64,000 nucleotides of DNA. Origin: Escherichia phage vB_EcoP_CU10EC. A program made the translations under genes and the position numbers. The stretch is taken from sequence record PQ435408.1. One strand, written 5' to 3'. Of the stretch, positions 31,398 to 32,700 are shown in pieces; position 1 is the first letter of the stretch; every line of letters starts with the position of its first letter. The notes below the pieces were generated by a model, which was not told the origin of the DNA, searched no databases, and saw only the letters and a list, made by a program, of their open reading frames with translations.

Positions 31398-32700
31398 ATT
31401 GATTGCCAGGGATTCCACCTGGCTCCATCTGTTTTTATAGTCACTCAGATATCGTCTGGACTTGTTGTGGTAGCCGGTACTGATCTCCGGCATAAGGCGC
31501 TTATTCGGCGGCGTCGAGCTTGCTTATTCGCTTGAGCCATCCTCGTGAGTCAGCCACGTCCCACTGCGCATCAGCCTGCACATTCACCACAACGGAAAGA
31601 GCACTGATGCGCTCACTTGGGACTCCTTAGCCATAACCCACGGGCTTCTGGTACACCAATGTTCTTACCTGTTGTGTGTTGTGGAGTGACGCACCATCTC
31701 ACTCTTGAATGTTAACCCATCCCCAGCCCCACAACATATGCTACGGTTAAGATTATTGCGTATGCTGTATGGTCTTGCTGATCACAACGGTAAGAGCACT
31801 GCAGCAACAATGTTGGATTTGGTATGCTAAGCCAGTCAACATTCAGTACTCTTGCCTGTTGTCTTCCCCGTTTCTAATACACGGACGGGGACACTCCATA
31901 AAACTATCAAAGAGTGCACTATTGCTCTCAATTGGGACTACTTAGCCCTAATCCGCAGACTTTGGGTACAGTAATGCACTCATTGTTAGGATGTCATAAT
32001 AGGGGAGGGAGGACAAGTCTCCCTTTACCCTATGATTTAGTTTACATGTAAGACCTAACATCTCGGTGTTGGATGAATAGCGTAATGATCTATCCGACAT
32101 TATTGGTTAATGTTGTGCTCAACATGAGCGTTAGTTGATAAGGGATCTGAAGCCTTATCCCAAAGATACCAACCTTTGGTATATAGCCTAAGATTCAGAA
32201 ATGGCCCCTATAGGGAGAGGCCATTGATTAACCCGAATGTTGCTTTACATTTTCTGTGAAAACCCGTTCTTAAAATAGTCTGTCTGACGGATGGGGGGCT
32301 ACCCCTAGCGTCAGTGCCATACGGCAAAGATTAAGTTAAGAAAGGTTATGATAGGAGTTCCTATCTCAAAGGATTCTAACAGAACCATTTACGATATTAA
32401 CTACTTACTGTGGAATAATTTATTTCCTCAGCAGGCTCTACACCCAAGAAAAGGCTAACTTTTCCATTTAGTTTTGATTGAACCAATGGACTGGGGAGAG
32501 TATTCCAATCCACTGGTTCGGTTGTTGTTGTTACTCTGGCGGCTTGTCACCACCGTGTTTACCACTGCATTTCCACAGGATAATGACAGTGATGATAAAA
32601 GCTATGTATGGAGCCGACACGTCTATAATCCTGACTAGTAGTAGCATCAGGACTATAAACACTACCACACCTAGCAGCAGCTTCTGAGCCACCTACCAGA

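Follow-up and report, generated by a model that had tools for sequence, protein, structure and literature searches.

What occupies a stretch of more than one kilobase in which an initial annotation of a phage genome saw no open reading frame (ORF) of 60 aa or more, but two diverged copies of a structured element? The stretch (31450-32700) lies in a window of 64,000 nucleotides from Escherichia phage vB_EcoP_CU10EC (PQ435408.1), a Gamaleyavirus (G7C/N4-like coliphage). In the best explanation, it makes up the 5' half of a minus-strand island of untranslated RNA, ~2.1 kb long; that strand has no credible gene from ~32530 to 30277. ORFs of the said length do exist, at 32478-32687 (plus strand, 69 aa, TTG start), 32559-32786 (minus strand, 75 aa, TTG start), and at the left edge at 31296-31535 (plus strand, 79 aa) and 31305-31493 (minus strand, 62 aa), but none of these mechanical ORFs is gene-like. 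The gene-free stretch itself stands with shifted limits: its top end is coding (a 53-aa ORF at 32531-32692), and it extends further than proposed, to ~30277, with tRNAs. The 'hypothetical proteins' annotated in the region are inconsistent from relative to relative, and the only credible coding sequences are the 53-aa ORF and a 56-aa gene that has decayed in the window. On the minus strand, the island runs from a predicted promoter through a structured core, three hairpin units, tRNA-like RNAs, and two tRNAs to a terminator:

32531-32692, minus strand: ORF for a 53-aa hydrophobic membrane protein, intact in 8/8 Gamaleyavirus relatives.
32480-32519, minus strand: hairpin with the invariant loop AAUACUCUC, immediately 3' of the 53-aa gene (folding z-score -2.2).
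32397-32467, minus strand: remnant of the decayed 56-aa gene (MNKFTIHWLNGK...), start codon lost and with an internal deletion.
32373-32400, minus strand: predicted sigma70-like promoter TTAATA-16-TAGAAT with a TG extended -10, from a consensus scan.
31994-32396, minus strand: genus-specific non-coding core of ~400 nt, a chain of stable hairpins.
31904-31989, minus strand: hairpin unit C, a diverged family member with a fold of the same architecture (z = -2.7).
31865-31891, minus strand: small hairpin, 7-bp stem (UCCCCGU/ACGGGGA) under a loop of 13 nt; L130 and L046 have it with 100% identity.
31781-31865, minus strand: hairpin unit A, 3' arm CAGUGCUCUUACCGUUGUG (z = -2.8).
31679-31780, minus strand: inter-unit spacer module, 88-92% identical in Salmonella, Klebsiella, and Escherichia siphophages.
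31586-31678, minus strand: hairpin unit B, 3' arm CAGUGCUCUUUCCGUUGUG.
31463-31585, minus strand: downstream module, opening with a GUGAAUGUGCAGGCUGAUGCGCA hairpin (31582-31565).
31334-31397, minus strand: tRNA-like RNA of 64 nt, from an acceptor/T-arm scan (fold z = -2.3).
31208-31328, minus strand: tRNA-like RNA of 121 nt with a perfect 7-bp acceptor stem, T arm, and ACCA.
30552-30707, minus strand: two tRNA genes (Rfam tRNA 58.8 and 36.7 bits).
30277-30308, minus strand: strong intrinsic terminator (13-bp stem, then a T run) that closes the island.

The 53-aa gene is the upstream limit of the RNA locus and lies outside the locus proper. Its product is 81-98% identical among relatives, and the substitutions are distributed over the codon positions as 21:6:27. 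The stem of the hairpin that follows it shows compensatory changes among relatives (e.g., GUGGAUUGG/CCAGUCCAU vs. GUCCCCUUU/GAAGGGGAU). The 56-aa gene is intact in six relatives (L001, L129-L133) and truncated in the window, L002, and L134. The promoter sequence shows almost no variation across the aligned relatives and, judged by its similarity to the consensus, likely marks the start of the untranslated transcript. The core is found in Gamaleyavirus only and is 95-100% identical over most of its length in the aligned relatives. It has a consensus fold of -110 kcal/mol and no match in Rfam, and since it is nearly invariant, the covariation within it (2/120 pairs) is uninformative.

Downstream of the hairpin units, tRNA-like RNAs occupy 31397-31008. 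The 64-nt RNA combines a 7-bp acceptor stem with a T arm and has its ACCA tail encoded; it lacks an anticodon arm and was missed by both ARAGORN and Rfam. One tRNA of the pair has the anticodon AAU and the other an aberrant anticodon arm; ARAGORN detects the first only. The relatives carry an annotated terminator at the site homologous to the one that closes the island. The T4 tRNA cluster with its species 1 and 2 RNAs is a comparable arrangement of untranslated tRNAs and structured RNAs from a common transcript, but it has no sequence relation to this island, whose non-tRNA parts are modular hairpins that occur across phage families.

The repeats that first drew attention to the locus are real: 31598-31661 aligns with 31913-31976 over 64 nt (77% identity), as 31588-31606 does with 31783-31801 over 19 nt (95%). 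They correspond to the arms of three minus-strand hairpin units (31989-31904, 31865-31781, and 31678-31586) and to one shared class of their interiors, in agreement with the proposed non-coding RNA locus with diverged structured copies. The presumed insertion into one copy (31802-31912) proved to be the small hairpin module together with the 5' arm and interior of unit A. Both named hairpins exist, UCCCCGU/ACGGGGA at 31891-31865 and AUGGCC/GGCCAU at ~32226-32203, the latter inside the conserved core. Conservation among relatives, whose absence would have refuted the initial proposal, is likewise found, within the genus for the core and also in unrelated phages for the hairpin module.

All three units share one architecture, a helix of 19 bp (CACAAC-A-GG-U-AAGAGCAYUG paired with CAGUGCUCUU-U/A-CC-GUUGUG) conserved in sequence, in which a bulged A separates 6 bp from the remaining 2 bp, U.U or U-A position, and 10 bp. 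It encloses 27-170 nt of apical sequence that is freely exchangeable. A covariance model of this module (R1; both arms sense, a helix of 6 bp, bulged A, and 13 bp, and an insert of 27-170 nt) scored unit A with 53.9 bits on the minus strand vs. 31.2 on the plus strand, and unit B with 60.7 vs. 30.9. The closing helix of the minimum-energy fold of unit A is the model helix. Unit C is below the score threshold of R1, yet its architecture fits. Its interior is ~77% identical to that of unit B, and, as read from the sequences, the interior class common to the two keeps an internal hairpin via two compensatory changes. Every relative has a homologous unit C at the same position, with several different interiors and with arms that show compensatory changes (CAAUGAG/CUCUUUG vs. 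CGGGGAG/CUCCCCG).

The module is strand-specific and has compensatory changes. Sense scores of R1 are 54-72 bits vs. ~26-46 bits antisense, and the helix has 95 G.U vs. 20 A.C pairs. Across 60 distinct arm pairs, drawn from units found by a filter that demands at least 17/19 pairs, 93.8% of cells are paired and double changes occur at 9/19 pairs; the covariation score of 0.205 compares with 0.105 in shuffles and is reached by none of them (0/500). The interrupted 19-bp geometry is fixed in all subfamilies, including those that lack the boxA consensus described below. The interiors fall into ~58-60 unrelated sequence classes with a median length of 47 nt and are weakly structured (mean z = -0.37). 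T-loop motifs occur in 4/58 interior classes vs. 0.1 expected.

Parts of the array are found in other phages and in plasmids. The spacer between units A and B is shared with siphophages along with the flanking arms only. Unit B and the downstream module are 98% identical to the T1-like phage HC8A; the downstream module is also 89.5% identical in Pseudomonas phages and folds no better than shuffled sequence (z = +0.2). The small-hairpin stretch (query 101-146) has matches in E. coli plasmids of ~80-190 kb, several of which adjoin tRNA arrays.

The module itself occurs in more than 200 IMG/VR contigs; scans with exact arms gave at least 120 IMG/VR contigs each for the 3' and the 5' arm, with 79 loci new in the second scan. 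It is present in phage lambda (44,785-44,864, 80 nt), 7 nt past the T-run of tR', on the sense strand of HK620 between pR' and tQ, in T1-like phages (adjoining tRNA), in Klebsiella phages, and in Enterobacterales prophages. In a scan of species-representative genomes, contaminating lambda spike-in DNA in unrelated taxa dominated the matches, of which only those in Enterobacterales look genuine. Several Gamaleyaviruses have no R1 match and carry the diverged unit C only; therefore, the canonical module sequence is dispensable.

The units keep a consistent context and orientation. Q-like antiterminators lie upstream and holins downstream, and structural genes are also among the neighbours. In 41/162 distinct contexts, the unit follows directly after a T-run, in 18/162 a tRNA D arm lies within 10 nt downstream, and in 43/162 a GUGAAUGUGCAGGCUGAUGCGCA-type hairpin comes after the unit. 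All 18 tRNAs within 1 kb of units are on the same strand as the unit, and in 123 cases vs. 28 the unit runs in the direction of the dominant coding strand. Breakpoints of homology blocks between unrelated phages coincide with arm boundaries, and units are present or absent among close relatives.

We conclude that the hairpin module is absent from Rfam, unannotated in the checked records, and present in hundreds of unrelated phages. Neither at gathering thresholds nor at E up to 10 does any Rfam family overlap a unit in the window, the sub-interval, or 17 unit-bearing loci, so the covariance search proposed as a check identified no family for the units. No element is annotated at the module site in lambda and the sampled RefSeq E. 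coli records. Our literature search turned up neither the lambda hairpin nor this non-coding region of Gamaleyavirus, and the arm sequence has a single full-text match, to a PCR primer for filler DNA of lambda. By eye, against consensus sequences, EcoKI, Chi, REP, and ERIC motifs and tRNA acceptor-stem mimicry gave no match. The M3 RNA of phi80, a classic RNase P substrate, was considered and rejected; it is the oop homologue at 36,229-36,288 of the phi80 record, and phi80 has no R1 match.

The 3' arm resembles boxA, the element that in lambda nutR (CGCUCUUA-C) is followed by the boxB hairpin and that in E. coli rrn reads UGCUCUUUA. Known boxA sites act single-stranded. Tested against these consensus sequences (rrn UGCUCUUUA; lambda CGCUCUUA), unit B (CAGUGCUCUUUCC) and unit A (CAGUGCUCUUACC) match, and in the whole window the boxA-like pattern occurs in these two units only, vs. 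0.25 expected. The 3' arm sequence CAGUGCUCUUU matches 10/11 positions of rrn CACUGCUCUUU. Among units selected on their 5' arm, ~85-90% keep GCUCUU(U/A) in the 3' arm. Published boxA references are CACugcucuuua for rrn and cgcucuuac for lambda nutR (PMC2724277). The arms read CAGUGCUCUUU and CAGUGCUCUUAC, and another form of the 3' arm has ...UCUUAC; the A variant has GCUCUUAC, like nutR. The boxA match is post hoc, one of several motifs tried, as is a match of CACAACA in the 5' arm to the GcvB target consensus. The module often has, like the boxA-spacer-hairpin layout, a short GC hairpin that trails it after ~14 nt, and, like nut and rrn sites, it is promoter-proximal in long untranslated or poorly translated transcripts.

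The module also differs from boxA. Its boxA-like bases form one strand of the covarying 19-bp helix and are paired with the 5' arm in the minimum-energy, centroid, and covarying consensus folds, in contrast to the single-stranded known sites; they may be transiently exposed co-transcriptionally. Some covarying subfamilies keep the helix and lose the boxA consensus (GAGUGCGCUUCCAG; unit C type AGUGUACUCCCCGAUAG). In lytic phages the modules have no boxB or N protein context, and in lambda late transcription Q antitermination is already present.

Tentatively, and with somewhat less than even confidence, we propose that the module is a cis-acting RNA for the elongation or processing of untranslated phage transcripts, as well as a recombination joint. 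It would act in cis on the nascent or primary transcript; the boxA-like 3' arm would recruit the host Nus factors NusB and NusE, and the ~20-bp helix would serve as a processing or protective stem. Nus recruitment and the stem together would allow the host RNA polymerase to finish long untranslated phage RNAs, which would be cut into stable pieces; examples are the late leader of lambda, immediately past tR', and, in lytic phages, the tRNA/ncRNA islands. As they are nearly invariant across phages, the arms could also be joints for homologous recombination that shuffle interiors and inter-unit modules among unrelated phages. The computational analysis shows the anatomy of the locus, the hairpin family with its strand, helix, and distribution, and the mosaic breakpoints; transcription from the predicted promoter, Nus binding, and processing are what we infer from it.

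A narrower explanation, which we consider rather unlikely, would limit the module to processing or stability: the hairpin would be a site of the RNase III type, or a stem that protects, and it would separate the modules of a polycistronic untranslated RNA, its likeness to boxA being fortuitous. The constancy of the interrupted helix in all subfamilies, boxA-less ones included, fits this explanation, as do the positions of units between modules, right before tRNAs, and right after terminators. Two unrelated tRNAs begin 3 nt inside the 3' arm; therefore, RNase P cleavage would cut the outer stem. With 19 pairs and one bulge, the helix has about the two turns (~20 bp) of an RNase III site, and the RNase III stems of the rRNA leader-trailer and the T7 early region similarly place a ~20-bp helix with a fixed irregularity between modules of a polycistronic RNA. 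Such sites, however, normally have no need of a near-invariant sequence on both strands, and this is what the module has across unrelated phages, around a hypervariable apical region. In another explanation, which we consider just as unlikely, a small trans-acting RNA would be made from each unit. The helix would then be a scaffold, and the apical region or the CACAACA 5' arm the effector, which could target host sRNAs such as GcvB, as a sponge or antisense RNA, or could divert tRNA-directed defences as a decoy. There are ~58-60 unrelated interior classes inside the invariant frame; they are weakly structured and would therefore be presented as large loops, and the hairpin retained in the units B/C class and the excess of T-loop motifs are consistent with effector functions, as is the GcvB R1 target consensus CACAACA in the 5' arm. 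The pR'-proximal 'moron' region of lambdoid prophages also encodes AgvB, a sponge that counters GcvB (PMC4104026). The AgvB/AsxR, STnc100, StxS, and Pas sRNAs share this lambdoid niche downstream of pR' and ahead of the lysis genes; AgvB/AsxR-type sRNAs (51-60 nt) combine a conserved 3' and a variable 5' part, a design of conserved and variable parts like that of the module, and AgvB has the CACAACA motif. But these known sRNAs of 51-200 nt have their own Rho-independent terminators, whereas the units have neither a promoter nor a terminator of their own, and CACAAC is paired inside the helix. The AgvB, AsxR, and STnc100 models match no unit (RF02702, RF02703, and RF02076), and AgvB/AsxR (RF02702, RF02703) gave no match in the window or 17 unit-bearing loci; no U-tract follows the units. 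AgvB, AsxR, STnc100, and the Pas sRNAs were thus rejected as distinct RNAs; in Sakai Sp5, AsxR and STnc100 are encoded past stx2B, in a region that has no hairpin unit or R1 match. No host target was found, and the E. coli matches are in unannotated places and plasmid tRNA arrays rather than under host genes.

Could the module act as DNA alone, as a recombination linker or a mobile palindrome in the style of REPINs, MITEs, or integron attC sites? The arms would then be recognised at the DNA level, or simply be retained through their promotion of module exchange, with no role in RNA. The breakpoints of high-identity blocks at arm boundaries in unrelated phages and the variable presence of units between close relatives agree with such an element, and short conserved boundary sequences have long been proposed to underlie lambdoid mosaicism (PMC3029335). 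The arms open with ...AAC and close with GTT..., like attC R boxes, and REPINs, MITEs, and attC sites share with the module inverted arms around a variable centre, hairpin formation, arrays, and a link to module exchange. We nevertheless judge this unlikely. The strong bias of units towards the strand of neighbouring tRNAs and genes and the surplus of G.U pairs over A.C point to a function of the single-stranded sense RNA, and the conserved bulge and mismatch are hard to explain via homologous recombination alone. Whole modules are swapped without target-site duplications or simple filled and empty sites, which led us to reject transposition; the interiors are unrelated and too short to be gene cassettes. 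There is no association with an integrase or transposase (neither RAYT nor IntI), and the module is found in phages rather than across host chromosomes. We therefore also rejected an identity as attC, REPIN, or MITE. Highly improbable, finally, are the readings of the interval as a replication origin, an intron-like element, or unrecognised tRNA genes, which the initial annotation had raised. Several stable hairpins, the lack of genes, and the tRNA-like RNAs just downstream (31397-31008) made them conceivable. But the interval has no iterons or tandem repeats (TRF), its GC content is 0.41-0.48 without an AT-rich dip, and the cumulative skew turns at ~28 kb rather than within it. Intron, ribozyme, and tRNA models (RF00005 included) are silent in 31400-32540 at E up to 10, where ARAGORN also finds nothing, and the tRNAs and tRNA-like RNAs are confined to 31397 and below. 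Rfam likewise gave no family, intron, or tRNA in 31450-32540 at E up to 10. Searches for group I/II introns, ribozymes, and large ncRNAs (GOLLD, ROOL) returned only chance-level Rfam matches (snoRNA, miRNA, E ~7).

An 80-nt conserved, structured element is thus unannotated in lambda, which is among the best-studied genomes, and it comes back in lambdoid prophages and in N4-like, T1-like, and other lytic phages. If the module is a Nus-factor or processing signal, as we tentatively propose, it would explain how long untranslated phage RNAs (late leaders, tRNA islands) escape Rho and mature into pieces. If the loops are effectors, they would represent a large unexplored pool of phage small RNAs. 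In a bolder and decidedly unlikely extension, phages would share an 'RNA cassette' system, in which a universal boxA-bearing adaptor helix, recognised by the transcription or processing machinery of the host, lets short loop cargo (host-sRNA sponges, e.g., of GcvB, tRNA-like decoys, and tRNAs) be expressed and matured from untranslated transcripts and be traded between unrelated phages; this would be an RNA-level analogue of integron cassettes that has gone unnoticed in lambda. Either way, the invariant arms offer a concrete mechanism that can be tested, both for how phage non-coding regions become mosaic on a fine scale and for how tRNA and ncRNA modules reach unrelated phages.

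Megablast of 30200-32800 matched 152 phage records, the best being Escherichia phages 24-32N, UE-M6 and IME11, and on sequence comparison the phage belongs to the Schitoviridae, genus Gamaleyavirus (G7C/N4-like). The gene layout agrees with this identity: a plus-strand gene for a virion RNA polymerase of 3487 aa stops at 28229, and SSB and RuvC-like genes on the minus strand run down to ~32700. The initial annotation had flagged 31450-32700 as lacking any ORF of at least 60 aa, which is literally untrue (one of 69 aa lies on the plus strand, one of 75 aa on the minus strand and two more at the left edge); none of these is credible as a gene, and the stretch free of credible genes extends past that interval, down to 30277. 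The locus contains the following features:

32531-32692, minus strand: small hydrophobic ORF of 53 aa (VAQKLLLGVVVFIVLMLLLVRIID...), intact in 8/8 relatives
32480-32519, minus strand: hairpin directly 3' of the 53-aa ORF; loop AAUACUCUC invariant, stem changes compensatory among relatives
~32467-32397, minus strand: decayed remnant of a 56-aa gene (MNKFTIHWLNGKVSSF...), from alignment with relatives
32373-32400, minus strand: conserved promoter-like site, TTAATA-16-TGnTAGAAT with extended -10, preceding the core
32396-31994, minus strand: non-coding core of ~400 nt, a chain of stable hairpins 5' of the hairpin units
31989-31904, minus strand: hairpin unit C, diverged copy
31891-31865, minus strand: small hairpin module between units C and A, 7-bp stem and 13-nt loop
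31865-31781, minus strand: hairpin unit A, canonical form
31678-31586, minus strand: hairpin unit B, canonical form
31397-31334, minus strand: tRNA-like RNA of 64 nt without anticodon arm; perfect acceptor stem, T arm, encoded ACCA
31328-31208, minus strand: tRNA-like RNA of 121 nt; perfect acceptor stem, T arm, encoded ACCA
31008-31119, minus strand: tRNA-like RNA of ~112 nt with two T-arm-like hairpins
30707-30635, minus strand: tRNA, Rfam-scored
30625-30552, minus strand: tRNA, Rfam-scored
30308-30277, minus strand: strong intrinsic terminator

The 53-aa ORF shows a coding-like pattern across the eight relatives (substitutions by codon position 21:6:27, second position depleted), yet none of their records annotates it. 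The hairpin that follows lacks a T-run directly 3' and may serve in processing or regulation or as a terminator for a phage polymerase. Six relatives (L001 and L129-L133) have the 56-aa gene intact; the window and relatives L002 and L134 have a truncated form. An arginine-rich ORF of 31 aa (MAQANKQARRRRISALCRR...; 31445-31540, minus strand), with poor ribosome-binding-site spacing, lies within the module 3' of unit B.

Extensive folding is predicted for the core. Over most of its length, identity among aligned relatives is 95-100%, exceeding the conservation of adjacent genes, and this sequence is too invariant to give much covariation (2/120 pairs). No homologue of the core was found outside Gamaleyavirus. 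Rfam, one of the checks that the initial annotation had proposed, gave no match to the core and no family overlapping the units in the window, at 17 other loci or in Sakai Sp5. The tRNA at 30625-30552 has the anticodon AAU, unusual for bacteria, and is annotated as Ile or Xle in relatives; the one at 30707-30635 has an aberrant anticodon arm and is labelled 'tRNA-OTHER' in relatives. Neither ARAGORN nor Rfam called any of the three tRNA-like RNAs, which may be decoys, degenerate tRNAs or functional RNAs of an unusual kind.

Units A, B and C are copies of one hairpin module, in which two conserved arms enclose a variable interior, and each folds individually into a common architecture. Units A and B read, 5' to 3', CACAACAGGYAAGARYAYUG, 42-50 nt, then CAGUGCUCUU(U/A)CCGUUGUG; their helix has 6 bp, then a bulged A and 2 bp, then a U.U (or U-A) position ahead of 10 bp. 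Unit C has co-varied arms (GAGUGCAUUA/UAGUGCACUC) and an interior that repeats that of unit B at 77%. The repeated blocks described initially are borne out (31598-31661 and 31913-31976, 77% over 64 nt; 31588-31606 and 31783-31801, 95% over 19 nt), as are both named hairpins; the supposed insertion in one copy in fact consists of the small hairpin at 31891-31865 and, from unit A, the 5' arm and interior. A Klebsiella N4-like contig (L046) and phage phi G17 (L130) carry this small hairpin at 100% identity; it also matches E. coli plasmids of ~80-190 kb, several of the matches adjoining tRNA arrays.

Blastn of 31440-32535 retrieved short segments, 88-98% identical, from unrelated phages: T1-like Escherichia phage HC8A, Salmonella ST1UNAM, Webervirus-like Klebsiella phages, Pseudomonas temperate phages, HK620 and large Klebsiella myoviruses. 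At least 120 IMG/VR contigs carry the exact 3' arm and at least 120 the exact 5' arm, the latter adding, among the matches listed, 79 loci to the 3'-arm scan. At most IMG/VR loci the unit is flanked by Q-type antiterminators on the upstream side and holins on the downstream side. The lambda unit (44,785-44,864) lies between Q and S and starts 7 nt past the T-run of tR', the 6S RNA terminator; the lambda record annotates only the dubious orf-64 there. HK620 has its units on the late-transcript strand, between pR'/qut and tQ, and the HC8A unit forms with a tRNA-Ile(AAU), related to the AAU tRNA of the window, a small island antisense to tail genes. Genuine genome matches are Enterobacterales prophages. 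Many in unrelated taxa (L135-L162 of the genome-contig scan, exact-pattern matches in Algoriphagus, Kitasatospora, Paenibacillus, Oceanobacillus and others) are lambda spike-in contamination of public assemblies, since they carry the lambda-type unit on mostly tiny or ~48.4-kb low-coverage contigs. No feature is annotated beneath the lambda-type unit in any RefSeq E. coli record among the matches listed, and no description of the family was found in Rfam 15, the lambda and RefSeq records checked or the searchable Gamaleyavirus literature; a full-text search for the arm sequence matched only a phage lambda PCR primer. One prophage contig carries the Rfam int-alpA RNA motif (L035 264-330, minus strand), located ~150 nt downstream from a unit.

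A covariance model built from 45 units (R1) gave units B and A minus-strand scores of 60.7 and 53.9 bits, versus ~31 bits on the plus strand, an asymmetry repeated over 100 sources. Compensatory changes affect both stems (AAGCGCAUUC/GAGUGCGCUU, AAUGGCAUUG/CAGUGCCAUU, GG/CC to UG/CA, AAC/GUU to AUC/GAU) in units outside the fetch-pattern selection. Across 60 distinct arm pairs, pre-filtered at ≥17/19 pairs and with many changes inherited rather than independent, 93.8% of cells were paired, 9/19 pairs had changed on both sides, and the covariation score was 0.205 versus 0.105 in shuffles (0/500) and ≤0.08 in slid controls. Every Gamaleyavirus relative has a C-type unit 3' of the core, with several unrelated interiors and covaried arms (CAAUGAG/CUCUUUG versus CGGGGAG/CUCCCCG). 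In the sense orientation G.U outnumbers A.C by 95 to 20, all 18 tRNAs located within 1 kb share the strand of their unit, and 123 units run in the direction of the dominant coding strand versus 28 opposite. The strand asymmetry, compensatory changes, G.U excess and co-orientation therefore point to a single-stranded hairpin of the sense strand as the functional form, RNA being the simplest case.

The interiors fall into about 58-60 unrelated classes (27-170 nt, median 47) and show only weak structure (mean z = -0.37); four classes contain a T-loop motif versus 0.1 expected. Blocks common to unrelated phages start and stop at the arms. With HC8A, the shared block starts at the first base of unit B and takes in the downstream module, which also occurs in Pseudomonas phages and contains the 31-aa ORF; ST1UNAM shares the 3' arm of A through the 3' arm of B, and several siphophages only the A 3' arm, spacer and B 5' arm. 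In E. coli prophages and plasmids, the segment shared with lambda starts exactly at the 3' arm or just past it. Close relatives differ by the exchange of entire inter-unit modules, with no target duplications, and in whether they have the canonical units. Because shared blocks end at the arms, modules swap and units come and go, the arms behave as recombination joints, in agreement with the older idea (PMC3029335) that lambdoid phages carry short conserved boundary sequences. This mosaicism would suit a DNA-level linker or mobile element; the helix data point to a single-stranded form, the defining features of attC, REPIN and MITE elements are absent, and we consider this reading improbable.

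The units sit in untranslated RNA and have neither promoters nor terminators of their own. Among 162 distinct contexts, 41 place the unit directly after a terminator T-run, 43 have a GUGAAUGCGCAGGCUGAUGCGC-type hairpin 3' of it, and 18 have a tRNA D arm ≤10 nt after it. In prophage late leaders, two unrelated tRNAs, one of 126 nt with a ~57-nt insertion and a tRNA-Arg(UCU), begin 3 nt inside the 3' arm (GUU|GUG; contigs L041 1800-1925, L059 1116-1241 and L012 7107-7183), so RNase P cleavage would cut the outer stem of the unit.

The 3' arm (CAGUGCUCUUU; in the A variant GCUCUUAC, as in lambda nutR boxA) resembles the E. coli rrn antiterminator CACUGCUCUUUA (PMC2724277). In the window, the boxA-like pattern occurs only at units A and B (0.25 expected), and GCUCUU(U/A) is kept in ~85-90% of 3' arms in a set selected on the 5' arm. 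The leading candidate is a cis-acting elongation and processing module, since a putative Nus-factor site would suit long untranslated transcripts of the host polymerase, and processing or protection would be a fitting role for a 20-bp stem. It ranks first only tentatively, because the boxA-like bases are paired in the helix, which sets the module apart from accessible boxA sites, covarying subfamilies lose the consensus, lambda late transcription already has Q antitermination, and the match was found post hoc.

A pure RNase III or stability stem would draw on the same helix and leave aside the boxA resemblance; we regard it as rather unlikely. Equally doubtful are scaffolded trans-acting small RNAs, possibly including a GcvB sponge acting through the 5'-arm CACAACA, for which AgvB offers a comparison (PMC4104026); here the variable interiors stand beside the lack of unit promoters and terminators. 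The module belongs to none of the AgvB/AsxR, STnc100 and Pas sRNA families, nor is it phi80 M3 RNA, which is an oop homologue. The origin, intron and tRNA readings of 31450-32700 offered initially are very improbable.

As judged from sequence, the hairpin module would work most like a boxA/nut or rRNA-leader element joined to a processing stem. We infer a cis-acting phage RNA signal with an unusual modular, hypervariable-loop design. Its horizontal distribution is very wide, and the finding is real and goes beyond a local curiosity.
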